Assembly (NCBI RefSeq): GCF_964355755.1
Contig: NC_092673.1
Location: 25,848,269-25,912,268, forward strand
Direction of reading: 5' to 3'
DNA: 64,000 nt
From: Antedon mediterranea
Lineage: Eukaryota; Animalia; Echinodermata
Under the pieces are notes generated by a model, which was not told the DNA's origin, did not search any database, and saw only the letters and a program-made list of their open reading frames with translations. This document shows, piece by piece, positions 3,851-42,581 of the stretch. The number at the start of each line of letters is the position of its first letter. Positions within the stretch are counted from its first letter, which is position 1. A program made the translations under genes and the position numbers.

Positions 3851-4664
3851 CTGTGCATTGAAACAATTGTTTTCACATGCACTGTTTTACTATTTTTCGA
3901 TCACTACACCTACATATTATTTGCACAAACTCCCTTTTTGTTAGCTACTACCAGCTGAGCTTTTACCATTATTTATTCATTAATAGGTGGTTTGTTTGTT
4001 GGCCTCTATTGCTTTGTGTGGAGAACATTCCCTTGTTTATATTGTAACCCGTATGTATAAGATTTGATATATTCATTACCTGCCACATATTCTGTGCCAA
4101 TCATACTGACGAGTTTAGTATTCACATTCATTACTGATGCCTGCAAATTTTACAACTTCCACTTGTCTATTTATCATGCCACATATTCAATATTTTTCAA
4201 TAAATTCTTCTATTGCAATTTTAAATATTCTGGTAAACCACCATAATTAGCTTTGAAGTAAATGACTTGGGAGGCAGAGCCTTCCTCCACTATATGGTCC
4301 AGGAGGTACAATATTGTGATTATTTAGGTTCCAAGTGGTCTTAGCATTGTTTTATGAGAGCCCTACAGTATGCCTTAAACCCTTCTACACTCTCAAACTT
4401 TTTGTAACAACAAATTGTGAGATGTGCCCATATATGGACATGATTATGTCATATCACTACCATATTTGGGCATATCACATCAGATCATTATCCAGAATCT
4501 CATAGCTCATAGCATTAACACGATTATATCTCTTCCCCACTTCTCTGCTATTCATATTTAAATTGTCCCCTTTTATGCCATAAATATATCATGCTTTAAA
4601 TTACCAAAATTCAAAGCAAGTTTAAACTCATTTCTAACTTTTCATTGTATAAAACAAATCTGCG

Positions 4665-9924: not shown

Positions 9925-10040
9925 GTGCCCAAATTTGGTAGTGATATGCCCAAATATGGTAGTGATATGCCCAAATATGGTAGTGATATGACATCACCAT
10001 GTCCATTATGGGCACATCACATTTTTTGTCACATAGGCCT
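9925..10040. mobile_element. MITE-family internal segment with a 3x internal 21-bp tandem (tgcccaaatatggtagtgata).
   Basis: It has the same internal core as the other MITE copies. It explains the ORF MPKFGSDMPKYGSDMPKYGSDM. Confidence 0.6.
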
Positions 10041-12114
10041 AATTTGTATAAGTGTAGACAGCTTTAGAGAGACCGGCACAACGATTGGAGTGTCGAACTA
10101 TACCGAACTTAGTGCACTGTGTAGGCTACTCATTGGCAAATCAAGGAGACCTAAAAAGACCGTGAATATTAATTTTTAATTACTATATTAAATTACAGAA
10201 TTACGGCAGGTTTCGCTTTCCTTCCAACGATTAATGTTTGTTTAATTTCGTGAACCAATAACGACGTATGCCAGCCGATAAAAACTGTTTGTAGTTTGTA
10301 CATATGATTTTTGTTTAATTAATTTATGTTGATGGCGTGCAGTTTATACATTAAAGCGCAAATTGTTCAACATAAATTTCATTATTTGTTACGATTTGAT
10401 TGGAAGAAAAAAACAAAAAATGTTTGGTTACGTAATAATAACTATTTTAATACTTACCATATCAGGAGTTAATGTTACAGAAAAGAGTCGTTTTGACATT
10501 ATAAATACACAAGTACGGTAGTAGTCCAGATATATGTTTATTTCTGGTAATGAAACAAACAAACCATCCTCTCTATAATGGTGATCATGTGGTGGCGGAT
10601 ATGCGCTGTCGAGCATGTGACGGCTATTTCGAACTTTAGCAGACATGTTAATGTGTTTAACAAGTTAATAAATGAAATAATAGTTCGACTGGAAAAATAA
10701 TTATTATTGATGTGTAAGGTATTTTAGGCCTATATAAAGAAACATTAGTTTAAAAGAATGTATTGAATAAAGTTTCTGAAAAGGGAACAAATAAATTTTA
10801 AAAATAAAGAAACATTTAATGTTATAAAATGCCAGTATTATGTATTCTGTCCTGTCCTGTCCTGATTCTTTTTACCGACCCGTTTCGTAGATAGTTGTTT
10901 TGTTAACTAATGTTACATAATACTTTCTATATGCCATTATTAATTATTATTTGCAAGATTATGTTTTAAATTTAGTGAATTTATACTTTTGAAAGTAGTC
11001 GCTAACAATGATAAGTTTTGAGAACTCTTTTTTTTTTTTTTCTTTTTTGTGGCGTTAACCACTATTTTATTCATTTCATTCTCAAATGATCAATACAATG
11101 ATTTTACACTTCATCCAAATATATATTCCCTTGTTATTCTGTTCTGTTATTTTCTTGTACTTTCTTTTATCTTTAGTACGATTTGATCGAAACAACTCGG
11201 TCAAATATATATATATATATACTTTATACTTTTATATGTATTATCCACTTTTTTCATTATTTTCTTTTATTTTAACTATTCCTTTCTACAATAGGTCTAT
11301 GTCTCTGTACAAAACACACAAGTGCATATATTCGAGTATATGATTGCACACATGCATACATACATACCCACGACAAAGGTATATAAATAAATAAATATTT
11401 ACAATATATAAAATGCAATACAATTATTATTCTTAATTCTTTTTTTTTTTTTTTTTTACAATAAGAACATAAATAAAAATATAAAATTCAAATAATTATA
11501 GTAAGCTTAAAAAAAAAATCTTTCCTTACTCTTGTGTTTTAGTTTTATGTCTCATGGTTATATTTGTTGCTTACTTATATGTTACGTTTCGTTTTGTTTT
11601 TAATATTTATTTCATTTATTTTCATTTTTTTTTTTTTTATATAATTCTATATAAACCTCTGTAGAATATACCGTATTATAATAGTCGGTTAAGGTATAAC
11701 CTATTATTTTTTTCTGCCAAAAAGAGGCGAGAAAGTGAACCATAATTCCATTTCTTTACTTTCTTCAAAATGTGTGCTTTATAGATACAGAAGCATCCAA
11801 GAGAGAACATGTGGTCAACAGAACTCTTTTTTTTTGTTGCCACAGCTGGTGGTGTTTTCGAGAAAAAAAAAAGATGATATTTGTGATAACATTAATTACG
11901 TTACGTTACGTTACGTCATAACAGTACCAATACCGGTATATAAGACTACCGTACAATAATGTATGATAAACACTTAAAATATCAATATAGATGAATGGTA
12001 CCAATACCTGCGATGGTGAAAATAATGAATAGAAGATGATTAAATGACCCAGATAGTTCACCATGATGACGTATGAAATATTTACTTATACCTTATTAAG
12101 CAGCAATGTACAGG

Positions 12115-12235
12115 TAAAGTATGACGTCATTCTTACCTGCGGCACTACTACTTAGTAGAGTACGAGCAATAATGAACTTTCAACCAATCACCGCGGGCCT
12201 CCTGTATGCGTGTAAATAGCCAATCACGATCTCGG
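12115..12235. promoter_or_regulatory. Promoter-like cluster with a palindromic CRE TGACGTCA (12119-12126) and two CCAAT boxes (ccaatcac at about 12184 and 12222).
   Basis: The motifs are seen directly. No confident gene is found next to it, so its function is unassigned. Confidence 0.25.
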
Positions 12236-13628
12236 ATACAAAATCGGTTCAATCAGAAATAATATAAAACGAATACTGTAATTAAGGATGCAACGACTCA
12301 TGATTTGAACTTAATAAAGTTCATAAATGAAATGTTCGAAATGAAAACAAACGTATAGCCTAGTATTGTTAATGAATGAGTAACCGGACATGCGGTAAAG
12401 GTGTAAACCAAAATACTATAGTCTAATTATTACAATTTTTGATATTTCAGGAAGTTAAACAATGTGGCTATGACTGTTATGACAACGAATAATGTGATGT
12501 AATAGGAATAATGTATTGCAATTCACGCAGTATTGTGAGTATGTATAACAGCAATCAACAAAATGCGTCATCGATATTATTTACGAGGCGATCTTGAGTA
12601 AGGTGTTTATATTTTTAAACAAAGCGTCTTATCATTTGAGAAGTCGTGTTTTTGTTGAAAACGGTGCTCTCTTTACTACTAAGTTGTGCAATCGTTATAA
12701 CGGACATGATACAGTGTTACAATGCCCATTATCACGGTCACATGACCTTGTAGAAAACGTACCTGGGAAAAACCAACCAGCTGATCTGCTGAATTTAATT
12801 ATTTTTTTGCCTGTAACTTCACAAGAACGAAATTGGCACATTTAGAAAGAAAATGTTGTGAAAAGATACATACTAAATTTACGGTATCTTTTGCATGCAT
12901 CGACACTAGAGATTTTTATTTTCCAATAACATTTTGACATTCATTTGATTTGAGTCATGTATTATTTATCTATTTTCTCTGTATCAAACACTCATTGTGT
13001 TCCATGCCTAGCAGTCAGCCTATGAACTACATGTTACTCTTCACAAACCAAAAATGTTTACATCTTGAGATTGGTATTGATGTTATTATGCTATTTTAAA
13101 TACAAACTGAGCAGGCCTATGCCTGCAGTAACATTCTGATTAAATACGCAACAGAAATGATGGGATTCAACGGGCGCCAGTACGCACATTTCTGAAGTAA
13201 ATCTGAATTAGCCGAAGTCTAGATTAAGATTCAAGTTTTTTATAAATCGGAGAAAATGTTCCCACAAACTGTATAAATTAATAGTGGTTGGGTATCTACC
13301 CGCCCCCGTTAATAAAATGGTAGAGTCCAAACGACAACTTTCAAAAATATATTCAAATCATAATTTGTGCGGGTCTGTGGTTTATACAATGACGGTTTGG
13401 TTACATTGAAATTGACGCCATTATGTCTATGACGACTAGATAAAAAAAAATCTTCAATATTATCTCCTAAATAAAAATATATTATCTGAGCATGGAGAAA
13501 AATTACTTAGTCCATGGAGGTATAAACATTTATTTTAAATAGATTCTATATTTATATAGGTATTATTGTATTACGTTAAATCATTTTTAATCAATCTATT
13601 CTGATCATGCTCATTGTCCACATGCATG

Positions 13629-14430
13629 ATTTACCGGTATAATGGATATAATAGGTCCTAAATGGTAAAATAATAAGCTTAGTCTTAAACTGTGAATTAT
13701 TGGTTATATAACATTTTATAATTTTCATGTTAAATTTTATAGTATATTACCAGTATAATAACATGGTTTACCGGTATAATGGATATAATACTTAATAGGT
13801 CCTACTTGGTCAAATAATAAGCTTAGTCTTAAACTGTGAATTATTGGTTATATAACATTTTATAATTTTCATGTTAAATTTTATAGTATATTACCAGTAT
13901 AATAACATGGTTTACCGGTATAATGGATATAATACTTAATAGGTCCTACTTGGTCAAATAATAAGCTTAGTCTTAAACTGTAAATTATTGGTTATATAAC
14001 ATTTTATAATTTTCATGTTAAATTTGATAGTATATTACCAGTATAATAACATGGTTTACCGGTATAATGGATATAATAGGTCCTGCATGGTCAAATAATA
14101 AGCTTAGTCTTAAACTGTAAATTATTGGTTATATAACATTTTATAATTTTCATGTTAAATTTTATAGTATATTACCAGTATAATAACATGGTTTACCGGT
14201 ATAATGGATATAATAGGTCCTGCATGGTCAAATAATAAGCTTAGTCTTAAACTGTAAATTATTGGTTATATAACATTTTATAATTTTCATGTTAAATTTT
14301 ATAGTATATTACCAGTATAATAACATGGTTTACCGGTATAATGGATATAATAGGTCCTGCATGGTCAAATAATAAGCTTAGTCTTAAACTGTAAATTATT
14401 GTTCATATAACACTTTATAATTTAATTTGT
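13629..14430. repeat. Tandem array with a unit of about 115-122 bp, about 6.5 copies.
   Basis: The unit tttaccggtataatggatataata(cttaat)aggtcct.cttggtcaaataataagcttagtcttaaactgt.aattattggttatataacattttataattttcatgttaaattttatagtatattaccagtataataacatgg is repeated head-to-tail. A 7-bp indel distinguishes two subvariants. Confidence 0.85.
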
Positions 14431-17036
14431 ACATTTATATTTTAGTACATTTCAATTATGTTGCAAGGAAAGAGATATTGCGATTTAACCAGCCAATCGT
14501 AACCGTTTGGGCGGAAAGTCTAAAAGGGCCAGAAAATATAGACGTTCACCTAATGTTATAAGTTCAATACGTAGGACTTAAGATTAAAACTCTGGTTTGT
14601 GTTAGCATTTAAAATAAAATAAATAAAATAATTTGGTTTTAAGATATCAATAAATTATTTGAATTTACTCTCGTGTCAGAAATATATCAGTAGGCCTACT
14701 GAGGATATAACATATTTTTAAATTGTGCATATGACAATCCATAAAATAGGCCTATACAAACCAGTGTGTATTTAATATTATTGGTAATAAACCTGTGAAC
14801 GACTTTTTAAACTTGTAAATTAAATCAACTTACCTGAACCAATACTTGAAAAAAAAACCGCTGACAATTGTAAACATTTATCGCTTCAACGAAATGGTCC
14901 TGATGTGCTATTACATTTTATTAGTAGTAATATTTGTCAACTTGAATGCTGATAAAATCACTTTGATGTATCGTGACTTCTGCTGTACTGTCCGTGTAGA
15001 CCAACCGAGGCACTCAAAGGTTGTCAAATACTTTTTACAACCGTTTTCGAATGCTATATACCCATTGAATACCAGCACATGGTATATGCGGGCGCGTGCG
15101 TTATTATTATTTAAAGTGACTGCATAATTTTCTCTCGGAATTGATATCAGTTAGTTATACAAACTGCACTCTAATAGTATGGAATTTTAACCCGTATATT
15201 CTAGGTCTTTGTTTGCGCGATCAGAAAAAGATGCATTGAAATTTGACCCACAACAATACAAATTAATAGATGGATACTTTTAATTATCCTTTAATTAAAC
15301 TAATGTGTTATTAATTAATGCTAAATAATTAAGTATCGATTATGTAACAATTAATTTATACCAGATACAGTGGTGGAAATTGAATGACAAAAGACGACAC
15401 GCGTCGAAAAGGTCGCGTGCCAGTTCTCTTTGTTATATTATATATGGTCTAGGCCTAATCAAAGTAGTACATTGATATTACTAGCATGGGTGATTTAAGT
15501 CAATTCAATTTAGTTAAACTTTATTTTACCACGGATGCCCAGAACTACTAACGGGGTCGTACACATACAAAAATACAATTTTAACCATTAAATATTATGT
15601 ACAGTATATATAAAGTATCCGGGAAGAGTGAAATTACAATTACTTAATAATTAGTAATTTCACTCGTCACTGAAAGATATAGTCTAAATATATTATTGTG
15701 TTAAGTGTTTGTGTTTATTCGATTGTTTGCGTTAAAACACAAGATTATTCCATTCAAGTGTAGGCCTATACCATTATAATGCAAGGCTACCAGAGTACTA
15801 TTTAAAAGGGCATAGGCCTATGTATTATTTTGTTCCTGAGTATAAAAAAGATGCTTTCCCAATTCTGACGTAATTTGTAATTCATTTTTGAACATTTTAT
15901 TTATTTTTCTGTTGATGTTGCCACAACGGTGACCTTTTTACCTGTTTGTTTATGTAAACGAGAATCATTTAAAAACATCTCTGACGTAATACACCAACGT
16001 AATTTTATTCTTTAGATGATATCAAATCAACAATATTTAAAAATCAATAGTGTATGTATGTTCAGTGTATTTATTTTATTTATTTAACTTTATACAGGAT
16101 TACACAATCAGGTAAAAGAAACCTGTTTTGCATTGGTAGGCCTGTAGTTTACAAATACTGTAATGACGATCCAGGATTTTGAAACAGAGACAACTTCTGT
16201 GGCGTGTGGAGGGAGAAGAGATAGCAAAATTGTCAAATGAAAAGCTTGACTGAATCTAATGTCCTATTTGAAGTGCAATGTTTAATTAGGGAGGGGTGGG
16301 GTGGTGGTAGCTGTGGCCCTCTCTGTCCATCATAGGCGGACCTACATACAAACCAGGGAGAAATTGGCCCCAACGAACGCGCACTTGCCAAATCTAGCAT
16401 ATCTTGACCCATTTAGCATTAAGCAATAATGCTTAGACATAATTTTTGAAAAATCTAGCATAATGTGGCATAATTCGGAAAAACTAATTTTCAAGGCTTA
16501 ATGTTTTCTTTCTTTTTAGCATTTTATAGAAACAAAATAGCATATGCCTGATTTTAACGAAATCTAGCATAATTTGACCAAACCCCGATGAGCTGTTTTG
16601 GTTTTTGTTTCCACTTTATTGGTACTTAGGCCTATCCATATCGAGATTTAGGTGAAAATTGTGCTAAATTAATAATTGTGTCCAGTATGTCGTCTGGCAC
16701 AATTTTATGCTGCCATCTAGCTTGTTTTTTTCATCACTTGCCACAAAACGTATGCGTCTATTATTATTTGAATTTGCAAACAAAGGAATGTGATTGCAGG
16801 CCTAATGCATTATTATGGTATAAACAATATTATTAATATCAAAATTGATTTTGATTTGTTTTTATTCGGTTTCAACTTAAGATTACAAGCCAATATGAAG
16901 ACAAACAATGTACAAGCAAATACATTAAATTAGAAACCAAGTCAGAAAGTCGAAAGAAAAATCAACTTATTCCAATGGGGTCCTTTAATTAAAAACAGCA
17001 TAGACAATAAAAACAAACTGAACAAACAAACACGCA

Positions 17037-19465: not shown

Positions 19466-21615
19466 ACTTATAATATAGATTAGGATGTATTCCTTTTAAT
19501 GTTTTGTTATTCATTGTTAGGTCCTATTGAAATCATTCAATTTAGTCGCGTGTCGGACGGACATCCTCGTGTTTTTGTATCACACGTCGTACACTTTGAA
19601 ATATGGCATTGTGTACACATGAGAACAAGGCACGCGCTATTTAACATAAACCATAAAGATCAAACTCCCAAATATAGGCTTACTGCCATAGAGGAAATAA
19701 ATATGTATTATAATGGTTCCCTTCCACGTATTAATAATAGAGGAAAAAGTAATAATTCTGTTAACAAAATAGTATTAGCGACATGTGCAACGTTATGTCC
19801 TAGCGCTGCAATAATTATTATTTCATCAACTTTCAACTAAGGAGGTATAGGCCTATACATACAAATATCAACTCATCTATTAAGCCGTAATTCTTTGGTA
19901 ATCGGTACAAATAAACACGACATTGAACGAAAAAATAATATTTATATTATTATTATTAATCATCGTAATAATTATAATTGTTTTCGTTGTAAAACATCAA
20001 AATGTAAACCCTAAAAAAAAGCACGTATTACTGTACTTTATTTTGGTTATTCTAAATTATAAACCTGTTGTTTTTGCTAATATCATGCAAACTTCCCGTA
20101 GATCTACTACGAATTTATTACAGGCCTATTAATATTTATAAAAACCGCTCTCTTACCAGAATATTTCCATTCGATATTGATAAATGAAGGCACAGTATTT
20201 TCCTTTTCAAAGGTCCTGGTACCGGTATAAAGCACTATCTTCCGACGCACTCTTTGTGTATGAAAAATAATAATATTAATATGTTATACGGCAGCATCTA
20301 TTAATACTATAGACCTATAGTAGGATGTTAAAAACCTTTTAGAAATCAGCTACCAGAGAGAAATGTTATTTTTGTAACAGACACGTTGCATTTTCATCTC
20401 TAATTGTATACGTTTAGTTTATTCAGGTTTAATCGTTTAGTTATGCTCATAAAAATTGCATGGTTCAAGTTGTTTATTGTCTGCGTATGTGTGAGAAATT
20501 TAGCCATGTGTTGTATAAGCTACAAATGATTTGGATTTATTAAAAATTGTTATAATATGCGAAAATGCGAACAGACCATATGTAGGCATGGCAAGTTAAT
20601 ATCGGTAGTCGAAAAATGGTAGGGAAATAAATCAAATAAAAATTAAATCAAGTCTATTTTTAAAACGTATCTTCAAACCAGATAAACATTTTCAATCAAA
20701 TCAAGTCTATTCTCATTGTTAAAAATTTATCCATCGGTGAAAAAATCATTTTCATTTAGGCCTATATCATTAGCATATAGTGTGCATTAATGGGAAATAC
20801 ATTAAATGTTCTAAATAACAATTGTGAATAAAATTAAAAAGTTGTTAAAAATGAAATTAGTAGGGCCCTATGCCGTCTGATTACCGTTGATATTATTTTT
20901 TTTAATTATTTCTATATTATAATTTATTATAATTCTATGTTTGTACGCCCGCTGTATTAAAATATGCCATAACACACTCGACTACCGGTAAACCTAAGTA
21001 TTGCTGGTTTTCCGTATGCACGGGTTGTTAAAATTATGGAAAGTCATCACAAGTAATGGCAATTTATCTGGTTTCTACTTCATTTATCGTTGCATAATTA
21101 TAGCCCCATAATAAACTACTCTACGCCTACAAACTTTATTTTTCCATGATTTTCCATGACTTTTTTTTCTTTTTTTTTAAATCACGATTGGCCAATTTAT
21201 TATGTTTTTTTCTAATAATAAGACCATGGAGGTATAAAAAATAGATTAGAATCTATTTTTATACCTCCATCAGTAGACCATGGAGGAAACAATCATTAAT
21301 TTAAAAAAAAATATATATATATACATTGTCCTTCATGGGTAGACAAATATCCCATAATTTAATGACAATACTGTATAAACAATATAAAAAGTTGCAAAAG
21401 TTGTAAGTAGGGGAAATCCCCGAATTCGTGCGATACCGGAAAAGCATATACTACATAAATTCAACCATGCGTGACAGTTACCCTGGATCGGATCGTCGAT
21501 AAAAATAAAGTGTGGGCCTATATATAACATTCATTAACAAGATGTTTCTAAAACTATCTAGCATCGTCATATATGATCTGAACTTCTTGTTTGTAGTAGA
21601 CTTATTGATGCAAAA

Positions 21616-23307
21616 ATGAGTCTGCCGAACTTTGTAGAATTGGGAAAGAAGATTGTGTGTGTTGGTAGAAATTATGCGTAAGTTATTAGCCTTAGTTAGC
21701 AGGTAGGTCTGCCTAGCTAGGCCTAATTAATAGGAGGCCTGACTGCTAGTAAACAAACACTCAGCAGCCCAGTGAGATCTATCCTATAGAGAAGCCTTCG
21801 GGTACATTACTCATTTTTTCCACATAATAGATTCTATTCGGACAAAAACTTTGTGACGACAGAATTCATTCTATGTAGACAAAATTCATTCTGTGTAGAC
21901 AGAATTCATTCTGTGTCAAAAAAATTCATTTTGTGTCAACAAAATTCATTTTGTGTCAACAAAATTAATTTTGTGTCGACAAAATTCATTCAGTGTCGAC
22001 AAAGTTCATTTTGTGTCGAAAAAATTCATTTTATATCGACAAAATTAATTTTGTGTGCTGAGCCTACTCAAGAGTGAGACAGAACGTTTTAACATGCAAA
22101 TTAGAAGGCAGAGTTTTTAATGGAGCCTCAAAGATTGACAGTTATATTAATTTTATTTCCCCAACCTTTTCTACTAACACTTTATAATTACTTGATTTAC
22201 CAGCAACAGTCCAATATAATTATGGAAGTCTTAGTTGAGCAGCAGTGAAATAAAATTTGATGATCGATACTGAAAAGAAAGACACGCATTTTAAGTGTAA
22301 TGAAGCATCTTTATTTAAAACCCCATGCGTCGACTATACCAATTGTTCTTGTTATTAAAGAAATGTCTAATATTGCTTCAACATGGTAGAGACTAACTAG
22401 GCTACTACTAGAAGTGTACAAGAGCCTAGGCCTAGACTAAACTGTCATTTATAATATTTTAATGCCATATGGTTTTTTCCTGAGAGTTGCCGTCAACCAA
22501 TAATAATGCCCTAGAAAATGTTGTACCCAAAATTTCACTAAACTGTCTTTTTACAAATTTTTAGAGATCATGCCGTGGAATTGGGGAACGAAGTTCCAAC
22601 AGAACCACTGTTATTTTTAAAGCCGACTACGGCATACTTACAAGAGGGAAGCTTAATTAAGGTAATTTTGTGTTGTTTTTAGTGAAAATACAGTCTATAG
22701 AAGCCCTTATTTGGGACACTGTCACACCCCTCTATTCATTTGATATTATTTTCTAATATAGGTAATAATAGATAATTAATTCAGCATTGCAACATCTACG
22801 AATAATTCTTGTTAATGCTTCTAGATGCCTCCTGGTTGTACAGACCTTCACCATGAAGTTGAGCTTGGAATTGTCATCGGAACCAAAGGTTCCAACATCC
22901 CAGAAGCATCAGCAATGAACTATGTTTGTGGGTATGTTCTGGGTCTTGACATGACTGCTAGAAACCTTCATGATGCTGCTAAGAAGAATGGTCATTCGTG
23001 GACGCTAGCAAAGTCATTTGACACGTCTTGTCCCATTAGTAAATTTGTCGAAAAAGATTGTGTAAAAGATGTTGATAATGTAAGATTATGGTTGTCCGTT
23101 AATGGAAATATGCGTCAAGACGGAAACACAAGCGATATGATTTTTAAAATTCCAACACTTATTAGTTATATTAGTCGTTCGATGACCCTTGAACCTGGCG
23201 ATGTTATATTAACTGGGACCCCCTCTGGATTTGGACCAGTAAAGTCTGGCGATGTCATTGTGGCTGGTCTAGACCAACTCCTGGAAATGTCTTTTACAGT
23301 CGCCTAA
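21616..23307 (+). CDS. FAHD1: FAHD1-like acylpyruvase / oxaloacetate decarboxylase (fumarylacetoacetate hydrolase domain protein), copy A, 3 exons, 213 aa.
   Basis: join(21616..21677,22565..22661,22825..23307). The translation is [21 protein letters not shown]|[32 protein letters not shown]|[19 protein letters not shown]...[11 protein letters not shown]...TVA*. It aligns residue-by-residue with human FAHD1 ([57 protein letters not shown]). Donors are GTAAGT and GTAATT, acceptors are TTTTAG and TTCTAG, and the phases are consistent (62+97+483 = 642 nt). Confidence 0.9.
21850..22065. repeat. Tandem array of about 20-22 bp (gtgtcgacaaaattcattttgt-like, about 10 copies) in intron 1 of FAHD1 copy A.
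   Basis: Copy B has no counterpart. The array is part of a roughly 560-bp insertion (21815-22375) relative to intron 1 of copy B. Confidence 0.8.
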
Positions 23308-23404
23308 TTTCCGATTACTGTATAAATAAGGTTTTAATAGTCTATCTGTTGGAATTTGTTGGTGGGTATTGAGCAAATTCTAGGAACCTCTGGACGTAAC
23401 CAAT

Positions 23405-23495
23405 AAAAGTGTTAAACTTGCCTCAATTGATATAAGACTCTGAGCTTTATTGGTTTCAAGAGTATTTTGATCTCGAACAGTGGCGAGTTCTAGGT
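23405..23495 (-). pseudogene. Orphan fragment of the MVP penultimate exon (its 3' end plus 11 nt of the following intron) lying downstream of FAHD1 copy A.
   Basis: 23410-23490 is about 90% identical to 27936-28016. The latter is the real 3' end of the MVP exon at 27947..28138 plus its GC donor. Translated on the - strand it reads ...[28 protein letters not shown]. Homology stops abruptly on both sides. Confidence 0.6.
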
Positions 23496-24472
23496 CTGAT
23501 CGCCAACCCACAGTAAATGTAAAATGTGCTAATTTACATGCAAAACTATTATAGGCCTTTAAAACAAAATAATCTGATCTACCTATTGTAAGTTGCTGAG
23601 CATATTTGTTAAATATTATCCACTGCAATAAGAGATTACTGCAGCAATCTGGGATTAGGCCAAATCTTCGCAAAGTGTATACTTGTTTACTTAAATATGA
23701 CCGGCCACTTACCGGCGTTCCCATCTTATTTAGGCCTACGTGTGGGTATAATTATTATGTTTTCTTTGTAGAAAGCAAAGTGTTGCAGATGCCATATTAA
23801 ACTATTGAGTTTCTAAAATACTTCCTTCATGATTTATTATTTTAAATTATTTTTATATTATAGTTTATTATAATGCCATGTTTGTACGCCCACCTGTATT
23901 CAGATATGCCATAACACACACTACCGGCGGTGAACCTAAGTATTGCTGGTTTTCCATGTGCACGTATTGCAGTTGTTACAATTATGGAAAGTCATCACAA
24001 TTGCATTGGAAATTTAACTGGCTTATGCTTCATTTATCTTTATATAATTATGCCTCCACAATAAACTACTGTACGCCTACGAACTTCATTTCCATGACTT
24101 TTTTTAAAACCACGTTTGGCCAATTTGTTGTGTTTTTCACAGGTGACCATTGAGGAAACAATAATTGATCTAAAATTATATATTTTCCTCCATGAGTAGA
24201 CAAATATCCCATAATTTAATGACATTACTGAAACAATAATGATAATAAGTTGTGAAAGTTGTAAGTAGGGGAAATCCAGTAGGGGAAATCCCCGAATTCA
24301 TGCGACACACCGGAAGAGCATACCACATATATTCAGTCATGCGTGACAAAACGTTACCCTGGATATCGGATCGTCGATCAAGTGTGTGGGCCTGTACAAG
24401 ATGTTTCTAAAACCACCCGGTATCGTCATATGATCTAAACTTCTTGTTTGTAGTAGACATATTGATGCAAAA

Positions 24473-25597
24473 ATGAGTCTGTCGAAATTTGTAGAATTGG
24501 GAAAGAAGATTGTGTGTGTTGGTAGAAATTATGCGTAAGTTTAGTGGCCTTTTAGATAGTTATCAGGTAGGCTAGGTCTGCCTAGCTAGGCCTAGCTAGG
24601 CCTAGTGGTAGGCCTGACTGCTAGTAAACAATCCTATGGAGAAGCCTCCGAGTAGCCTGCTTCGACATGGTAGAGACTAACTAGGCTACTACTAAAAGTA
24701 TGCAAGGGCCTAGACTAGACTGTCATTTACATACTTTATTACCATATTGTTTTTTGCAGAGAGTTAATAAATTAATAGCGTAGGTCCCCTAGATGATTTT
24801 GTATCCAACATTGCACAAAATTGTTTTTTTACATATTTTTACTTTTATTTAGAGAACATGCTGTGGAATTGGGGAACAAAGTTCCAACAGAGCCACTGTT
24901 GTTTTTAAAGCCGACTACAGCATATTTATCAGAGGGAAACTCAATTAAGGTAATTTTGTGTTTATATACATTTGGTTGTTTTTAGTGAAAACGCAGTCTA
25001 TAGTCTACAGTCTATACCCCTCTATTTATTAGATTTTATTTTCTAAAATAGGTAATAATAGATAATTTATTCAGCATTGCAACATCTACGAATAATTCTT
25101 TTTAATGCTTCTAGATGCCTCCTGGTTGTACAGATCTTCACCATGAAGTTGAGCTTGGAATTGTCATTGGAACCAAAGGTTCCAACATCCCAGAAGCATC
25201 AGCAATGAACTATGTTGGTGGGTATGCTCTGGGTCTTGACATGACCGCTAGAAACCTTCAAGATGCTGCTAAGAAGAAAGGTCACCCGTGGACACTAGCA
25301 AAGGCATTTGACACGTCTTGTCCCATTAGTAAATTTGTCGAAAAAGATCGTGTAAAAGATGTTGATAATGTAAGATTATGGTTGTCTGTTAACGGAAATA
25401 TGCGTCAAGACGGAAACACAAGCGATATGATTTTTAAAATTCCAACACTTATTAGTTATATTAGTCGCTCGATGACCCTTGAACCTGGCGATGTTATATT
25501 AACTGGGACCCCCTCTGGAGTTGGACCAGTAAAGTCTGGAGATGTCATTGTGGCTGGTCTAGACCAAGTCATGGAAATTTCTTTTACAGTCGCCTAA
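24473..25597 (+). CDS. FAHD1: FAHD1-like acylpyruvase, copy B. It is a tandem paralogue of copy A, with 3 exons and 213 aa.
   Basis: join(24473..24534,24853..24949,25115..25597). It has the same exon structure and phases as copy A and is about 92% identical in protein ([21 protein letters not shown]..., VGGYALG versus VCGYVLG, and so on). Both copies are intact with conserved splice sites. Confidence 0.9.
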
Positions 25598-26734
25598 CTT
25601 CCGATTATAAATATGGTTTTAATAGAATTTGTTGGCGGGTATTGAGCAAATTCTAGGAACCTCTGGACATATCCAATAGTGAAACCGATTGTAAAACATT
25701 TGATTGGGTATTATTAGCCAAATAACAGATTGTTTTTGTGCAGTTTCCAGCTGCAACAATTCCTAAAATAATTAAAGTACCTGCAGAATAAATAATACAG
25801 TATGTGTTTGATGATTGTAGAAAATATGTTGTTATGGATGCTATTAAAAACAGTCAATTATGTTTTGCAAATAAATCTACATTTTATTATTTAATTATCA
25901 TGCATAATATTGTATTGATATGTAGGAAACACAGAAAGTGTATTCACAATAGTTTAGATTATACACTGTTTTTTTTTCTTGAACTGTGGTCAATAAAAGA
26001 ATTAAATTCACAATTTAGTTTGTAAACACGTTTCATGTGACCTGATCTTTCTTTGTATAGACAATGTAGGTATATGTATACATTGGTTCATAATTATAGC
26101 ATACCTATATTATTTTTTTTTTCACAATAAACAACTGAATACACATACATATATAAAATATTAATCTTTAGGTAAGCCTAAAATACCACTATTATCAATT
26201 AGAAAAAATAATAAAAAAACTAAATATTACATTAAAAAAAATATAAACTCAATATTGCATAACATATTCTCTATGCTTCATTACCTCTTGTTTAACAATA
26301 AGCATGCCATGCTATTATCTTTGAGAACCATTAACCTTTTTGCAAAGTTTGAAACACTACAATACTCATGTTAATAAATCTAACATCTTAAAATAGTGCT
26401 GTATTAACATTTTTTATGACATAATGTTTTTTTTTATTTTTTATTTTATTGTGCATTTTAAGAAATGTTATGGTGCCTGTTCCTGTTATTTACTATGCTG
26501 TATATGCTTTTTTTTAAAAATTGTATTTTTTTTTAAACAATTTCTTATTTTTTCAGATGGGTTTTAAGATTAGTTTCTAGGTGACACATCTGTGAATGCT
26601 GTTATTTCTTTACACGGTGAGTTTTCTGATTTTTTTTCTGCATACTGCATGTATATATCTTTTACAAAATGGTTACTTCTATTGCAAAATACAGTTAACA
26701 ATACAAAAATAAATAGACTACTCTTACTACTAAT

Positions 26735-26858
26735 GCTCTGTCTACACTATCAAACTAGGTTGACGACAAAAAAAAGTGTAGTAATATGACATGTTCATAG
26801 ATGGGTACATCACATTTTTTGGTCACATAAAGTTTGATAGTGTAGAGAGAGCTTGAGG
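26735..26858. mobile_element. MITE copy with both terminal inverted repeats, in the FAHD1-B / MVP intergenic region.
   Basis: It begins gctctgtctacactatcaaactag and ends ctttgatagtgtagagagagct. Confidence 0.75.
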
Positions 26859-27026
26859 TTAAATAATATATGAATAAACATTTTATTCTCCGACATAAAA
26901 TAGAATATAACATTATATATAATTCTTTTTGTAAACTACTGTAGGCCGCAATTCCTAAATCATGGGATAAAATTTTGGTTAAATTCAAACAAGTTTCCAT
27001 TTCAATGTATTTACTTGGCGTATATT

Positions 27027-30000
27027 TCACTTGGTACCAATAAGACCATGAGCCGTATTTAAAAGGTTGATGGGATTGTTGCCATCGGTGATAAAAGTGG
27101 TCTCAAGTCCAAGTGCTTTCAGCAACTTAACCTGGTGAAAGAGAAATAAACAGATTAGCATTCTTGGTTGTTGTTTTTTTCAATTTCATACGCATTCAAC
27201 AGCAAGCACAGACTCACCAATTACTGGATGAATAAACTATTTTATAATTGTGATGCTCATAAACTAAGTCTCATTTAAGGCTTAGGGAGTGGAATTGAAA
27301 GAGTCGTGAATTACAACCCTGGCATGGTCAGGATTGAACCATGGACCTTGGGATTGGAAGGCAAACACGTTAACCACCAAGCTACAGCTCCACTTGTCAT
27401 GGTAATTGTAATGGTTGGAACAGTCACAGATGGATGCAGTCTATATGAATGTATGTACCCTATCCTCCTTACCTGCATTTCTGGACCTGCAACTGCTATA
27501 CCTGATATTGTATCTGCTCCTAGAGTATTAACAATCTTCTTAAACTTGGATACCTATTTTTTAAAACAATCATTCTTAGTTTTAGGCTCGGTATGAATTG
27601 AAGAAGACTAAAATTTGCTGGAAACTTTCTTCGCAATAAAGAAGAAATCATTGCTGTGGCAGCCAAAACATGTGCTTGCAAAAAAAGGATGACCAGCACT
27701 CACATACATTTATGTACTAGAGGCGGGTTCTGGTATGCAGAGAGATGAACTGGCTGTCACAATGGCAGATAGGAAGTTATAGAGGAATCTAGTCATATAA
27801 GTTTGGATATGTCCTGAGCTAAGTAAGTTAGTAATGAATTATGAAGAAATAAATTATAAAAGCCCAATAGTCTGTTAAAAAAACAAACTGATAAAAATAA
27901 TTGAATGAGAAAGCGAGTACTGTATTCTAAAAAGGGTTAAACTTGCCTCAATTGATGTAAGACGTTGAGCTTTATTGGTTTCAAGATTATTTTGATCTCG
28001 AACAGTGGCGAGTTCCAAGTCACGAAGTATAGTTGTAGTATCCAAATCTGATGCGTGTAGAATCTCATCGGCCTGCGCCTTCAGCTGGGCGGCTACTATC
28101 TCACTCTGGCACTCAATACGAAGCTTTTCTGACTGGGCCTAAAGATAATTTTTCATATTTGTTTTTATTATTTATTTTTCACCCGTCAATGTATCAGATA
28201 GGATTAAAGAAACCAGTCCGCCCTCATATCCTTCCCTCATGCGTCAAAGTTCATAAAAATCCACCCCTGATAATCAACATTGTTTGATGAACTGGTGCTA
28301 CAATTTTCTCTTCAATTATCAAGCATAATCACTTTTATCATAACTTGCCAAAATAACCAGGCCCATCACAGCTACCCCTGGATCTTGTAAATTCCAGCCA
28401 AATAGGTAAATAAATGCCAACCAAGCCCCCGACCAAGCCCTAATCAACTAAAGTCAACTACAAACAAAATGTTTACCGATGCTTCTGCCTTAGCCTGACC
28501 ACTTGACTCAATAGCAGCTGTCACTGCTTGTAGAGAATATAGCTGACATCTTGCCTTCTCTGCTTCTTTCTCATTGGATAGTTTCTGACGTTCTAATTCA
28601 CCTTTAGCCTTCTGCTCCATTCTGCTTGCCTCGTGCTCTGCTGATGCCTCAACAGATCTTTCATAAAGACTTATAATTAATAGTCTTGAAATCTTTCATA
28701 TTCAAAAACTTAGTTTTATTGAAATAATCTTGTAAAATAGTTCATATGTGGCCAACTAGTCCTCGGTACTGTATCTAAGTTTTCTAGTAAAATGTGTTTT
28801 AAATGTGGAGCCTGTCTCATAGGTCCTAACAATAATCAGGGCCTTAACCAGAATGAGGTAGAGAAGTCACTCCAACACAGCTTGTATACCCACTTATTTT
28901 AATCTCTCACAGACCTGATAGTTTATCAGCGTATTCACCCGCTTTAACCAAGATAGGAACTAGCATTCGCCGTCACAATGTATTTCAATGTCATAACTTA
29001 TTAACGTATTAATGGAACTGCCATACTCACCTTGTTGCTATTTCAATTGCCATTTGAACAGATTTCATCAGACTATCTCTCATATGCTTGTCAACAGGCT
29101 CAATACTTTGTACGTCAACATTGGTGATCACCTTTCAGGTAAAACAATCATTACTAACAAATTAATATATCGCACTATCTTTATATTTAAGGCTACAAAG
29201 AAACAACAACTAAACCACTTCAAAATAAAAATACCTTCAAAATATACATAGAACCTTTCCTGAAAACCTAACAAGGGGCAATATATGTACAGTATGTCTT
29301 CGCAATAATGGACAGGGGTCATAGAAAGGTCATAAAGGTCATGTGCATCACAAAAACATTAAAGAAATAATCCTAGATACAGTAGTATTAAAAGATACGA
29401 AACCATTTTAAAAGCATTATTTTGATTCCTCAGAAAAGCATGGGTGGGAATTATAATTTTATATATAAAATGTTATGTTTTACCAGTTGATTGGCCTCAA
29501 AATAGAGTCTATCTAACACCTTTCCATTGTCATCCACACCAAACACAGCAGCCCGTATTATCTTCACTGAAAACTTGTGGAATTCATCGAAACGAATGCG
29601 GGATACTGCACCTCGAATTCTGCCTCCTAAGAGTGAATTGATAACAAGTCTGGTAAGTTTAGTCATTTTTTTAAGCTCTAGTGATAACAGTTGTTCAGAT
29701 GTGATTGTGCTTAAGTATGAAAGCTTAAAATAGCCACCCACACTCACCATTATCAATTACTTGATTCACTTATAAAAGACTTACCAATCTCACGACAAGC
29801 AAATCCTATAAAATCTGGAACAGAAAAGATAGCCTGCTCTGACTTTTTGTCACCTTTTTTCACCTGTAAAGTGTTAATAGTTAATGGACAGTAAAGATAT
29901 ATTCTTAGAATTCTGAAAATAATTCATTATTTTAAATACAGTAGAACTGTAGAACTTTTTACTTAATAGTAGTTATAACCCTTTAATAATGGCTTCCACT

Positions 30001-33000
30001 TAATAATGGCTTCCCCCTTAATAATGGCTTCCCCCTTAATAATGGCTTCCACTTAATAATGGCTTCCCCCTTAATAATGGCTTCCACTTAATAATGTCTT
30101 CCTCCTTAATAATGTCTTCCCCTTAATACGGGTTACATCTTAATAAGGGTTTACCTGTTATAGGGGTTAGCCCTTAATTAGTGTTCCCCATAATACTGTA
30201 GGAAAGGAGGCGTTCTACTGTAATAAAAAGCAACCAATTTATACCTCAAAATGATTATTGCAGGCAATCTTGATTCGCAGTCTTGCATGGTCGGAAGTTT
30301 CTACCTGAAAGATTTGTTTAAAAAAAATTGTTTTGTTCTGTAATCAGTCTCTGTGATATTTCTTAACCAAGACTTTTATTGGTCGTTAGGCCATCAAGAC
30401 AGGGATGGTACACAAATGAGACGGTACCTGACTATGATGCATGTGTGTATTCTATACCATCATAGTAAATTAACATCTCCCTTTGCATATCATCCCAAAA
30501 CACTGAGCTCGCTATTTTGTGGCAATTAACAGAAATTTACCTCAATGATATCTGTGATGTAGTCTGGACCGAGCATTAGGCAAATTGTTTGAAGTGCATT
30601 TTCTCGTTTTGGCTTGCCAGCTGTAAGATAATAAATACTTTAATCTTAATTAAGTTAAGCGTGAAGTTAAGTTAGGAATTAAGATTAATTAAGACCTGTA
30701 CATCAGATATAGTTCAGCTAGAAAACAATGGAAGATAGCCGAACTACTTACTAAATCTTAACCTGACCCTCTAAATAATCTCTCACTATAAAGTACAAAG
30801 AAATCAAACTCCATACATCCACATTCAAAGTCTAGTCAATCCATTCTACTACACACACGGCTCAACAGAAAGTGTTTACATTAGTAAATTGTAGTTGGGT
30901 CAGTTCTTTATGTCACACCTTATGGATATGAATATAATGAAAATTCATGTTTATTTTGTGACGTTTTATGAGGGGTTCCCAACTGATGTACGAAAAGAAA
31001 TGTTGCGGTCAGGCTACTGTATCATTATGCTATATCCATATTAAAGCTATACAGGTAGGTATTCTTGAATACAGTAGTAAACAATGAGTTGTTACTTTAC
31101 CACTAAGGCTAAGAATATTAAAGTCTTCATGTGGGCCTAGGATTGCCATATCAGGACCAAACACAACTCTGCCAGTCTTCTCTTTGTATTTGTAAACCTA
31201 AAATGGTATGGTAAATTTAATACAATATTGCTTCCAATTTAATAAAATAATATTGTAACGGTAAAATAATAAAAATCAGTACCACTCTATGTATTTCAGA
31301 AAATTTCTATTCTAACAATACCTGAACAGCTGTGTTTCCTGGGCAACGATATGTAACGACTCTAGTTTTATCTCTTCCCTAGAAAAACAAAAGATTATTG
31401 TAAAGAAAAATTAAATCTGAGTTTATTTATTTTGTTTACAATGGATTGAAATTATCTACTCTCTTCCCAATAGTTGTACACACAGACTACCACAGCCTCT
31501 CAAGCTATAGGTAATCCCCTATTTAAAAGTACGCCACAAAAGTCATAACAAAAACATGAATTAAAATGGCTCATCAATTCAACAACGTAAAAATACTTAC
31601 CTTTTTACTAACATATTGTGGATCGATCGATGCTTCAAAATAAGCCATTTTGCGAATGTCATCAGCGCCACATCCACCCCCATTTCTGAAATGGAACACT
31701 TTCATTTTAACACAAGAAACGGATATACATACTTTTTACTACCTATGAACTGCATACTTTTAAGGAAGAGTACTGAGATTTGTAAACTAAATATAAATAA
31801 TTTATATCTTCCAGAAAGAGCTCACTTTAGTATTTCTTCAACTAGTGGTAATAACTTTTTTTCCCACAGCTCTTCATATTCCTCGAGAAGATACGATTGA
31901 GGACCCATGACCGCTCGAATCTTTCCCGTTTGTAAATGTCGAATGTAGATTCCTTCATTTTCTGCAAGAGATATGGCTTTCCTGAAAGGTAAAATAAACA
32001 AACACTGTTTAAAATTAATATCAATAATATAAAACAAAAAACAAAACACTGAAAAAAGAATCTAGGCCATAGGCATGAAATAGAGCATTAGCTTTCTTAA
32101 CCAACCAATCAAAACTCTGCTTACAGTACTATTGAATGGCAAACTAACCTTACAAAGCCACGGTCGTCTTGTTCCATCACATGCACCTGAATGGGTGGTA
32201 TGTATGATGCAGGCCCTTTGATCATCCATCTGTCCCCAGCCTTCCTTGATGGTTTACCTGCATATAGAGAACAATACATAGGTCGCATATGTCATGCCTC
32301 TGGACCAAGCATACAGATACAGTACATACAACAGGTTTGCAGGGATTGAATAGATTTAACACTAAAGCTCTGTCTACACTATCAAATGTATAGCTTTGCA
32401 GGGATTGAAAAAGTTTAACACTGAAGCTCTGTCTACACTATCAAATGTATAGCTTTGCAGGGATTGAATAAGTTTAACACTAAAGCTCTGTCTACACTAT
32501 CAAATGTATAGCTTTGCAGGGATTGAATAAGTTTAACACTAAAGCTCTGTCTACACTATCAAATGTATAGCTTTGCAGGGATTGAATAAGTTTAACACTA
32601 AAGCTCTGTCTACACTATCAAATGTATAGCTTTGCAGGGATTGAATAAGTTTAACACTAAAGCTCTGTCTACACTATCAAATGTATAGCTTTGCAGGGAT
32701 TGAATAAGTTTAACACTAAAGCTCTGTCTACACTATCAAATGTATAGCGTTGCAGGGTTTGAATAAGTTTAACACTAAAGCTCTGTCTACACTATCAAAT
32801 GTATAGCTTTGCAGGGATTGAATAAGTTTAACACTAAAGCTCTGTCTACACTATCAAATGTATAGCTTTGCAGGGATTGAATAAGTTTAACACTAAAGCT
32901 CTGTCTACACTATCAAATGTATAGCTTTGCAGGGATTGAATAGATTTAACACTAAAGCTCTGTCTACACTATCAAATGTATAGCTTTGCAGGGATTGAAT

Positions 33001-36000
33001 AAGTTTAACACTAAAGCTCTGTCTACACTATCAAATGTATAGCTTTGCAGGGTTTGAATAAGTTTAACACTAAAGCTCTGTCTACACTATCAAATGTATA
33101 GCTTTGCAGGGATTGAATAAGTTTAACACTAAAGCTCTGTCTACACTATCAAATGTATAGCTTTGCAGGGATTGAATAAGTTTAACACTAAAGCTCTGTC
33201 TACACTATCAAATGTATAGCTTTGCAGGGATTGAATAAGTTTAACACTATAGCTCTGTCTACACTATCAAATGTATAGCTTTGCAGGGATTGAATAAATT
33301 TAACACTAAAGCTCTGTCTACACTATCAAATGTATAGCTTTGCAGGGATTGAATAAGTTTAACACTAAAGCTCTGTCTACACTATCAAATGTATAGCTTT
33401 GCAGGGATTGAATAGATTTAACACTAAAGCTCTGTCTACACTATCAAATGTATAGCTTTGCAGGGATTGAATAAGTTTAACACTAAAGCTCTGTCTACAC
33501 TATCAAATGTATAGCTTTGCAGGGATTGAATAAGTTTAACACTAAAGCTCTGTCTACACTATCAAATGTATAGCTTTGCAGGGATTGAATAAGTTTAACA
33601 CTAAAGCTCTGTCTACACTATCAAATGTATAGCTTTGCAGGGATTGAATAAGTTTAACACTAAAGCTCTGTCTACACTATCAAATGTATAGCTTTGCAGG
33701 GATTGAATAAGTTTAACACTATAGCTCTGTCTACACTATCAAATGTATAGCTTTGCAGGGATTGAATAAGTTTAACACTAAAGCTCTGTCTACACTATCA
33801 AATGTATAGCTTTGCAGGGATTGAATAAGTTTAACACTAAAGCTCTGTCTGAACTATCAAATTTTATGTGACAAAAAATGAAGTGATCACACATTTTTTG
33901 TCAAACTAGTTAGTCATACCGTGAACTGCATCATCAATGAAATCTTCAATTGCCAGCAAAACTATCGCCTCATCTTCTGAGAGTACAAACTCTTTTTGAA
34001 TACCCTCTGGAATTCGTTCATCTAAATTAAGAGAATACCAGATGGAAGGTTAAAACAATTTCAACCATCTTTACATGGTCAAATCTTTCAGATAAACAAT
34101 TTTAGGAATTGGTACATTTTTTAGTACATTTAATTATGTATTTCTTGATTAAAATAAATAAAAAACCTTACTTGGATTGAGGAAGAAGCTTGTAACACCC
34201 TTGCGAAGTTCTTTTTGTCCAAGTCTCGGCCTTCCTGTCGAATTCACTGGATCGTGAATAACACAATATTCACCTTTAGCTAAAACTTTCTTTGTTACAA
34301 TGTCTGCCACAACCTGTAAACATACAATGATTTGAAACTGGATCAGAAAAAAAATGATTTACCTGAAAAAAAAATGTAATTTAAAGCAAGTCAAAGAATT
34401 ACAGTTTTTTTGTTTTTGTTTTTATAGAAGTGAATAACTTTATTAAAACTGCAAAATGGCCTATTTAAAGTCTGATTTTATTAATCTTAATTTTTCATGT
34501 TTTTGGAGGAAACATAACAGTATACATAACATAAAAGTAACATAGCGAACATGTCACTGTTTGCATTAACATTTCACTTTTTAAAACAGTAAACTGAAAA
34601 TTGTTTTTCTTTAGCTCAAAAAATTGACCCAAGTGTTTTTTATTTTGTTTTTAGATAATGGTTTTAACAGCCAGAAAATATGCTAGTTCTATGCAGATAA
34701 CCATTCCTCAAAGATGTAAGTGTTTCATAGTTTTTTTTAAATGTATTTGCAGTACCTCTCCAATCTCTGGAATATATGCCTCAATATCGTTTTTTGTGAT
34801 CAACCATGTTTGGCCCGACTTTCTTTCACGGCCAAGTCCATCAACGCAGGTCTGCTCAGCAACCATGTGTAAGCCAAGGTTGTCGTTTAGAATGTACGCT
34901 TTGACTTCTTCCAAATACTCCTCATAGACACCAGGAAGGTATGCTCCTGGTGTTCTAACTAACCACATCTCATCTGTTACACGATTCCTGTGTTTAAAAA
35001 GAGAGGCACAATAAAATTGCTCAATTTAACTGACAGATATTCACCATATTTAGCACCTAAAGCTCGGTCTACACTATCAAACAAAAAGTGTGTGATGTGC
35101 CCAAATATGGTAGTGATATGACATCATTTCTATATATTGGCACAACACTTTTTTTGTCAAACTAGTTTGATAGTATAGATAGAGCTTTAGAATTATCACA
35201 ATGTGTTATAAGCTACTGGTTATACCATGGAGAAATAAGTTAGTTAACTTATTTCTCCATGGTTATACATACTGCAGAGAATATTTACTTTTATTATGAA
35301 AGAACAAGGTAGGAAAAAAGATAAAAAGAACTTTGTAGGCAGACCATTCTGTAATAAAAAATATTCAAACCCATATTAAACCAGTTACTGCAGAAGTTTA
35401 AAAAGGGAAAATCAAGCCAAACATTAATGTATACTAACTTTCCATTGTCATCGGTAAAATCTTGTACAGCTCTCATTTTTAGTGCATGTCCTTCCTTCAC
35501 GATAAATGGCTTAATAATCCCCAAAATTTCCTGGAAAAAAGGTTTGAAAATAAATACGTCTACATTGCTTAAAAACACCTGTTTTTGTAAACTATTGAAC
35601 TTTTTAAAAACTTACTACATTAGGATTTGGGTAATATGTCAACGGACCAATAAGCTGAAAGCAATCACCAGCGGTACGCTGAACATCGCCATCCTGGTGA
35701 TCCAGAAGAACTTGAAGTCTAATGGCATGATTTGATTTAACAACTGGTAAAGGGCGCACAGCTTTTGAATATGAACCACCTGAAAAGACACAAAAATCTA
35801 TAAATCTATGACACTTTCAACTTTTAAAAATTCAATCCAAAATATTACTGATTAAGTATTAAGTATCTTTTACCTTGAATTCCTTCAATTTGTTATATAT
35901 AATGTATGTTTTTGTAGATATTTACCTAAATGTATATCTATCTATAAATGTGTGTGTACTACAGTTTTGTAAATTACTTGGTTAGTTGTCTTTGAATTAT

Positions 36001-41700: not shown

Positions 41701-42581
41701 AGATCTACCCTGTGAATGCCATTGCCTTTCATAGTGGGCATAATACATTTGCAAGTGGAGGCTCTGATGGATTCGTAAACATCTGGGATGGATTTAACAA
41801 GAAGCGGCTATGTCAGTTTCATAGATACCCTACCAGTATATCATATTTAGCTTTCAGGTAATGAACGATATAGTATATAAGCCCCTTCTAGGGTATATAC
41901 TTGCCTTACCCTAAACCCAGTGAATGTGTCCTTCCGGCCTAGGATTCCACAAATGTACTAATTCTGTCTAATGCACATAATAATGCCCAATAATTTCTAA
42001 TTATTGACAAATGCAAATTTTCTTTTTTTATGATCCAATATGTTTGAATATAATTGTAAACAGCGAAAGTAAAAAGTAAGTTTAAGATTTTAATTCAAAC
42101 ATGTGAGATCATATCAAAGGAAAATTTGCATTTATCAATAATATATAAAGATCCAGATGAATCTTTTCACTAATTTCCAATTTAAAGAATTAAATAGTGA
42201 TATTAGTGATATGCCCAAATATTGTAGTGATATGGCATCATCATGTCCATATATGGGCACATCACATTTTTTTGTCACATAAAGTTCCAGATCCAGATTT
42301 TATTCTCGAGTATGAGCCCACTCTGGGGTATAATGTCCATATATGGGCACATCACATTTTTTTGTCGCATAAAGTTCCAGATCCAGATTTTATTCTCGAG
42401 TATAAGCCCACTCTGGGGTATAATGTTACTAATTATTTTAATGATTTTCTCTTTTAGTCATGATGGTAGTATATTAGCAATCGCTTCATCATACATGTAC
42501 GAAAATGGTGACATTGATCATCCTGATGATGCCATTTTCATCAGAAAAGTTACCGACCAAGAAACCAAACCAAAAATTTAA
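38726..42581 (+). CDS. BUB3: Mitotic checkpoint protein BUB3 (WD40), 6 coding exons, 326 aa.
   Basis: join(38726..38923,39232..39301,40000..40151,40795..41058,41685..41857,42458..42581). It begins [45 protein letters not shown]...AVLDCCFY|[23 protein letters not shown]|[51 protein letters not shown]|[70 protein letters not shown]...YAFKCHRLK|...[36 protein letters not shown]|[16 protein letters not shown]...KPKI*. It is near-identical to human BUB3 over its whole length. All introns are canonical GT-AG with consistent phases (981 nt). The ATG lies 8 nt after an acceptor (TATTTCAG at 38711-38718), which implies an upstream 5'UTR exon. Confidence 0.92.
41110..41345 (-). mobile_element. tRNA-derived SINE copy in BUB3 intron 4.
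   Basis: It is homologous to 27175-27430 along its whole length (ctcatttgaggcctagggagtgagttgaaagagttgcgagttacaacc...ggattggaaggcaagcaagttaaccaccaatttacagctcca). Confidence 0.7.
42207..42425. mobile_element. MITE-related internal segment, partially duplicated in tandem, in BUB3 intron 5.
   Basis: gtgatatgcccaaatattgtagtgatatggcatcatcatgtccatatatgggcacatcacatttttttgtcacataaagttccagatccagattttattctcgagtatgagcccactctggggtataatg is followed by a second partial copy. Confidence 0.6.

Follow-up and report, generated by a model that had tools for sequence, protein, structure and literature searches.

The analysed window is a 64-kb stretch of crinoid (feather star) nuclear DNA from Antedon mediterranea with an A+T content of about 67%, in which two copies of FAHD1 lie on the plus strand and the 3' exons of MVP on the minus strand. 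With canonical splice sites throughout, the coding exons of FAHD1-A were placed at 21616-21677, 22565-22661 and 22825-23307 (+) and those of FAHD1-B at 24473-24534, 24853-24949 and 25115-25597 (+), and each spliced copy encodes 213 aa. The protein of copy A is identical to XP_071946800.1, 'oxaloacetate tautomerase FAHD1, mitochondrial-like isoform X1 [Antedon mediterranea]', and that of copy B to XP_071947946.1 from the same species, the two being annotated by NCBI as separate genes on one 36.2-Mb scaffold. For copy A, NCBI also lists an isoform X2 with an alternative N-terminus. Exact-sequence look-ups with FAHD1-A, FAHD1-B, the exon-3 ORF of FAHD1-A and a 114-aa ORF (23380-23724, minus strand) that runs across both junctions of the fragment described below found no contigs on record, and a FAHD1 protein search found no crinoid contigs among the read-level assemblies.

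The homology between the two copies extends well beyond their coding exons. Comparison of the window with itself resolved three collinear blocks, pairing 20888-21278 with 23830-24201, 21276-21756 with 24145-24631, and 22374-23405 with 24658-25678, and these blocks define a duplication unit A (20888..23405, plus strand) that contains FAHD1-A and a duplication unit B (23830..25678, plus strand) that contains FAHD1-B. The units also differ by sizeable indels, since intron 1 measures 887 nt in FAHD1-A versus 318 nt in FAHD1-B and the alignment upstream of the genes contains 145 gap columns. A tandem repeat of approximately 80 bp in intron 1 of FAHD1-A (21850-22056), which is absent from copy B, explains part of the difference in intron length. 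The only Rfam match was a sub-threshold chance match (YenS) within these intron-1 repeats, which we regard as spurious.

On the minus strand, three MVP coding exons were delimited at the 3' end of the gene. The first of them (27947..28138; 192 nt, 64 codons) is bounded by the acceptor ctttag| and the donor GAG|GCAAGT, and its translation, read from 28138 to 27947, ends in ...RLTSIE. It is followed by an exon at 27473..27553 with a GT donor (gtaagg), which aligns to positions 15080-15167 of the MVP locus of the crinoid Anneissia japonica (L001), and by an exon at 27027..27131 that includes the stop codon and aligns to L001 14274-14384, the end of the annotated MVP gene. The exon with the GC donor had originally been taken for the penultimate one; because two later coding exons follow it, and both align to the last two MVP exons of Anneissia, it is the antepenultimate coding exon.

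The GC donor of this exon lies at 27947/27946 (GC at 27946-27945) in a strong AG|GCAAGT context. The phase-0 frame carries from the exon into ag|GTATCCAAG, giving ...SIE|VSKFKK, and human MVP reads ...EVE|VKKFKQ at the corresponding boundary, parallel to the Antedon sequence. At the same codon boundary, Anneissia has a canonical GT donor, GAA|GTAAGC (L001 about 15296). No annotated Antedon MVP protein came up in a protein search with the spliced C-terminus of MVP, so the GC donor rests on the alignment with orthologues and on reading-frame continuity. On these grounds, the real MVP intron is a GC-AG intron with a boundary conserved in orthologues, and the switch from GT to GC is a lineage-specific change on the Antedon side.

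Repeats of several kinds populate the rest of the window. Satellite arrays were found at 13625-14423, 32400-33850, 36610-37131, 43239-47485 and 53608-55307; one, with a 59-bp period, lies beyond the MVP exons described above, toward the upstream exons of the gene, a second exceeds 4 kb with a period of roughly 90/285 bp and partial self-complementarity, and for the others the periods seem to be near 57 bp and 137 bp. A MITE-like dispersed repeat of approximately 100 bp occurs in both orientations at 4384-4480, 9941-10069, 26730-26857, 35057-35190, 42205-42286, 42845-43001, 51761-51911, 52480-52649 and 56789-56923. One of its copies is located between FAHD1-B and the last MVP exon, and the repeat is unrelated to the fragment described below. 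In addition, a 200-bp segment of the intron between the last two MVP coding exons (27189-27392) is 83% identical to 41117-41319, 14 kb away.

A fragment of an MVP exon and intron downstream of FAHD1-A

A BLASTN search of 23300-23600 against the 64-kb window aligned 23405-23496 to 27930-28021 in plus/plus orientation without gaps, with 85 of 92 positions identical (92.4%, E = 5e-34). The original prediction had described a match of about 90% identity over 85-90 bp, on the same strand as MVP and 4.4 kb from the real exon, and the formal alignment bore out its coordinates, strand and distance. A three-way alignment with the real exon and its Anneissia orthologue showed that the fragment (23405..23496, minus strand) derives from the 3' end of the antepenultimate MVP exon together with the adjoining 17 nt of intron (27930..28021, minus strand). 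Its exonic part, 23422-23496, corresponds to the 3'-most 75 nt (25 codons) of the exon, and its intronic part, 23405-23421, to the 17 nt with which the next intron begins; the GC of the donor falls at 23421-23420. The intron portion had been put at 11 nt including the GC donor; the donor and 11 perfectly matching bases are indeed present, and after a single mismatch the homology runs on for another 5 matches to a total of 17 nt.

The similarity is thus significant, and it is confined to two places in the window. With a word size of 7, no further match of the fragment longer than 18 nt was found in the rest of the 64 kb, where the source is the sole other copy, and the fragment is therefore not a repeat within the window. 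A dispersed repeat or transposon cargo likewise finds no support within the 64 kb: the window holds only the fragment and its source, and the fragment has no convincing flanking repeats.

The presence of intron sequence indicates that the template was genomic DNA and not a spliced mRNA, and a processed (retro-)copy of MVP is ruled out by the 17 nt of intron with the GC donor. We also considered, and rejected, a role for the fragment as an alternatively used exon of MVP. A good acceptor is lacking, an exon from the candidate AG would measure 73 nt and be out of frame, and FAHD1-B lies between the fragment and the stop codon of MVP, 3.5 kb away. With neither a promoter nor a credible acceptor, and at this distance with FAHD1-B in between, the fragment stands outside MVP expression. 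The practical interest of the fragment is for annotation, since its frame is still open and its donor strong, and it could give rise to false MVP-like exon calls.

The 7 differences in 92 nt amount to a divergence of 7.6% between fragment and source. Six of them are exonic, and three of these change an amino acid (N to T, R to S, T to I). When polarised by Anneissia, five of the six are derived in the fragment and the remaining one is ambiguous, a pattern that indicates neutral decay of the fragment: the real MVP exon is conserved, and the fragment is drifting with no sign of selection.

Anatomy of the inter-unit junction

The homology between units A and B ends at the same base at which the MVP homology begins, position 23405. 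Here the end of unit A, ...CCAATA, meets the MVP homology, AAAAG..., with one nucleotide (A) common to all three sequences. Past the equivalent breakpoint, copy B reads CCAATA|GTGAAACC..., which is unrelated to the MVP piece, as had been predicted. On the other side, the MVP homology stops after GTC at 23496, and a spacer of 333 bp (23497..23829, no strand assigned) separates it from the start of unit B at approximately 23830. The fragment had been placed exactly at the A/B junction; it does abut the end of unit A, but the spacer lies between it and unit B, so that 425 bp of composite sequence separate the two units, the MVP piece being the portion next to unit A.

Sensitive BLAST searches of the spacer against the window, the region upstream of unit A and the Anneissia locus gave nothing significant, the best match being 64% over 116 nt of AT-rich sequence (E = 1.5e-4). 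The spacer has no Rfam match, its ORFs have no Pfam match, and no convincing terminal inverted repeats or target-site duplications were found in the flanks of 23405-23829. These results bear on the possibility that the 425-bp piece, or the 92-bp piece alone, arrived later and independently of the duplication, either as the cargo of a mobile element (transposon-mediated capture) or as filler at an unrelated double-strand break at the unit boundary. Such a history would suit a 333-bp part with no identifiable source in the window and a window rich in MITE-like dispersed repeats and satellites. It would also require, as an unlikely coincidence, that the MVP piece start at the exact base where the A/B homology ends, and it is further weakened by the lack of terminal inverted repeats and target-site duplications around 23405-23829 and of other copies of either piece in the 64 kb, the MVP source exon aside. 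We consider a later insertion distinctly improbable.

Inspection of the breakpoints for microhomology, which had been suggested as a check, revealed at most 1 nt, namely a single common A at the left switch, with nothing visible at the right one. As the breakpoints have diverged by about 8% since the event, microhomology of this length is uninformative. A perfect 10-nt inverted repeat (AACCAATAAA / TTTATTGGTT) pairs 23398-23407 with 23446-23455 across a 38-nt loop and so joins the end of unit A to the interior of the fragment, whereas copy B has only CCAATA at the breakpoint. We rejected this repeat as a snap-back or priming signature, since it would yield an inverted copy and the observed copy is direct; moreover, 6 of its 10 bases are already present in copy B and 3 come from the A-run at the junction.

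The junction has also created a canonical poly(A) hexamer, AATAAA at 23402..23407 (plus strand), from AATA of the FAHD1 unit and AA of the MVP intron copy, and this hexamer falls within the inverted repeat just described. No other canonical hexamer occurs in the roughly 490 nt that follow the FAHD1-A stop codon. The equivalent position in copy B is occupied by CCAATAGTG, and the first canonical hexamers of that copy, at 25771 and 25787, lie beyond the breakpoint at 25678; the breakpoint thus appears to have severed copy A from hexamers that copy B retained. The MVP-derived sequence offers a candidate CA cleavage site at 23424-23425 and U/GU-rich stretches at 23441-23469, at suitable distances. 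A weak TATAAA approximately 15 nt past the stop codon is kept in both FAHD1 copies, so the new AATAAA may not be needed, and co-option of the captured MVP piece as the 3'-end processing region of FAHD1-A, although compatible with these motifs, seems unlikely. If the site were used or read through, the FAHD1-A 3'UTR would carry antisense sequence to the MVP mRNA, which could couple the two neighbours. The locus also offers a small testable case of a poly(A) signal newly made by a duplication junction, here in a young paralogue whose evolution outpaces that of its sister.

Lineage, age and origin of the junction

As the outgroup we used a single locus, that of A. japonica (L001, FAHD1 with flanks). 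It carries one FAHD1 (10001-12202, plus strand) arranged tail-to-tail with MVP (14277 onward, minus strand), and no second FAHD1 was found within 10 kb on either side. This arrangement indicates that the convergent pair is ancestral for these feather stars and that the duplication occurred on the Antedon side. Given the single FAHD1 and the GT donor of Anneissia, the Antedon lineage is the one to which both the duplication and the capture belong. Furthermore, the fragment and Antedon MVP both read G|GCAAGT where Anneissia has GT, so the capture post-dates the change from GT to GC.

Copy B keeps ancestral-like residues as well as the ancestral tail-to-tail position beside MVP. With Anneissia as the outgroup, 9 of the 11 amino-acid differences in exon 3 are derived in FAHD1-A, marking it as the fast-evolving paralogue. 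The changes in FAHD1-A include GGYAL to CGYVL, KKKGHPW to KKNGHSW and GVGPV to GFGPV, sites at which copy B and Anneissia agree and at which human FAHD1 has the same residues as these two.

Upstream of FAHD1, a 31-nt element (TATGTGTGAGAA.TTTAGCCATGTGTTGTAT) at 20486-20516 is 97% conserved with L001 7651-7681, although the non-coding DNA around it cannot be aligned between Antedon and Anneissia. The element has no Rfam match and may be a regulatory element or a small exon. Its position upstream of copy A shows that the left flank of unit A and the right flank of unit B are the ancestral ones, which is exactly what a tandem duplication predicts.

Between copies A and B, dS over the whole CDS is 0.10 (dN/dS 0.38), and the divergence is 6.2% in the 3'UTR, 11% in intron 2 and 14% upstream; dS to Anneissia, about 1.8-2.0, is saturated. 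The divergence of the fragment from its source falls inside the A/B range, and on this measure the fragment is compatible with being approximately as old as the duplication, which argues further against a later insertion. The same figures make an assembly artefact, that is, a junction produced by a chimeric join or by collapsed haplotypes, barely credible. There are 7 differences between fragment and source, the divergence of unit A from unit B is 4-14%, and the two FAHD1 copies code for distinct intact proteins with separate NCBI annotations on one scaffold. Misassembly does not produce diverged copies, and with all copies diverged and both genes annotated separately, an artefact is disfavoured.

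The anatomy of the junction, its lineage, the similar ages and the neutral decay are established by the sequence comparisons. In our preferred reading, to which we give roughly even confidence, the fragment is a templated ('filler') insertion that arose together with the tandem duplication of FAHD1 on the Antedon side; that both came from one complex event, and by which polymerase pathway, is inferred. The ancestor would have had one FAHD1 tail-to-tail with MVP. A break or a stalled fork in the FAHD1 3'UTR, at the position equivalent to 25678, would have released a free plus-strand 3' end that primed approximately 2.25 kb ahead in the MVP intron and exon and copied 92 nt (27930 to 28021). After the end dissociated, approximately 333 nt of other sequence would have been gained, and the final join, at the position equivalent to 23830, would have fallen approximately 0.64 kb upstream of the FAHD1 start codon. 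The product would be ordered as unit A, MVP fragment, spacer and unit B, and the fragment, with neither promoter nor acceptor, would then have decayed neutrally. The pathway may have been iterative template switching of the FoSTeS/MMBIR type, or end joining after an aborted strand invasion; a direct orientation with the source beyond the break is what primer extension on the opposite resected flank or on the sister would predict.

Several features support such a single event. The MVP segment sits between the duplicated units and starts at the exact end of the A/B homology. The junction is composite (92 nt plus 333 nt), as is typical of iterative template switching. For the 92 nt, the template could be located at 27930-28021, which is 2.25 kb past the breakpoint in pre-duplication coordinates. 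Against a single event, no template for the 333 nt was found in the window or in the Anneissia locus, a 92-nt insert taken from 2.25 kb away exceeds classical polymerase-theta inserts both in length and in distance to its source, and microhomology of at most 1 nt provides no positive support.

The collinearity of fragment and source also counts against a single event, as it would be predicted equally by a larger tandem duplication, spanning approximately 23830 to 28021 in the coordinates of copy B, after which copy A lost the 2.25 kb equivalent to 25679-27929. The original unit would then have spanned FAHD1 and the intergenic DNA and run on into the final three exons of MVP, ending midway through the antepenultimate one, and copy A would at first have had a promoterless MVP 3' end, of which the deletion left the last 92 bp. 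This history accounts for a fragment whose order and orientation relative to FAHD1-A are those of the real exon relative to copy B, and whose age matches that of the duplication. Large A/B indels have arisen since the duplication, as intron 1 and the 145 upstream gap columns attest, and tandem duplications commonly end inside a neighbouring gene. On the other hand, two or three events are required instead of one, and there is no other trace of the 2.25 kb. In addition, position 23496 should abut the start of a unit, but 333 bp intervene, and these have no counterpart upstream of unit A. We regard a larger duplication with a later deletion as possible, at a probability well short of even.

The original prediction had interpreted the fragment as filler DNA copied during duplication or repair. 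What holds of this proposal is that a genomic copy of part of MVP, present once in the window besides its source and about as diverged from it as the two FAHD1 units are from each other, lies at the end of unit A; the filler mechanism itself is a sound reading, but a larger tandem duplication with a subsequent deletion fits too, and the window and the outgroup locus do not separate the two.

Comparison with known rearrangement systems

Templated insertions at duplication junctions and partial-gene relics are already well described, and the Antedon junction is a new instance and not a new kind. Under either leading history, the fragment is an ordinary scar of a known kind of rearrangement. Its value lies in extending the record beyond cancer and model organisms to an echinoderm, with a clean, datable composite junction of a tandem duplication for which the outgroup gives the pre-duplication state and a lineage-specific change of donor from GT to GC time-stamps the capture. 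The example adds an instance, not a principle.

At human CNV junctions attributed to FoSTeS/MMBIR, templated insertions range from 7 bp to 13 kb and are joined bluntly or with 1-2-bp microhomology (PMC5120786). The Antedon case resembles them in having a short copy of nearby DNA exactly at the join of the units, a composite junction and an insert size within that range. Microhomology of approximately 1 nt or none would match as well, although after about 8% of divergence it tells neither for nor against this mechanism. Unlike them, it is an old germline event fixed in a crinoid and about 8% diverged, so that the breakpoints are no longer readable at nucleotide precision, and a template was identified for only one of the two inserted pieces.

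In C. elegans, templated insertions have been described at the junctions of tandem duplications that measure 0.1-10 kb, and in helq-1/brc-1 mutants such duplications involve polymerase-theta end joining (PMC8654963). The Antedon duplication, at about 1.8-2.9 kb, is within this size range, and a direct-orientation copy from the opposite flank fits one 3' end extending on the other. Classical polymerase-theta inserts, however, are a few to a few tens of nucleotides long and come from the immediate flanks, in contrast to 92 nt from 2.25 kb away plus 333 nt.

Pack-MULE and Helitron captures likewise place an exon-plus-intron piece of a host gene at an ectopic site, but the Antedon fragment lacks terminal repeats and a target-site duplication, and the window contains no further copy of it. 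Partial-gene relics of tandem duplications offer the remaining parallel, in that a promoterless, collinear 3' piece of the neighbouring gene lies beside the new gene copy and decays neutrally. In Antedon, by contrast, only 92 bp are left and the 2.25 kb between the fragment and FAHD1-A are absent, so that reading the junction as such a relic must assume an extra deletion.
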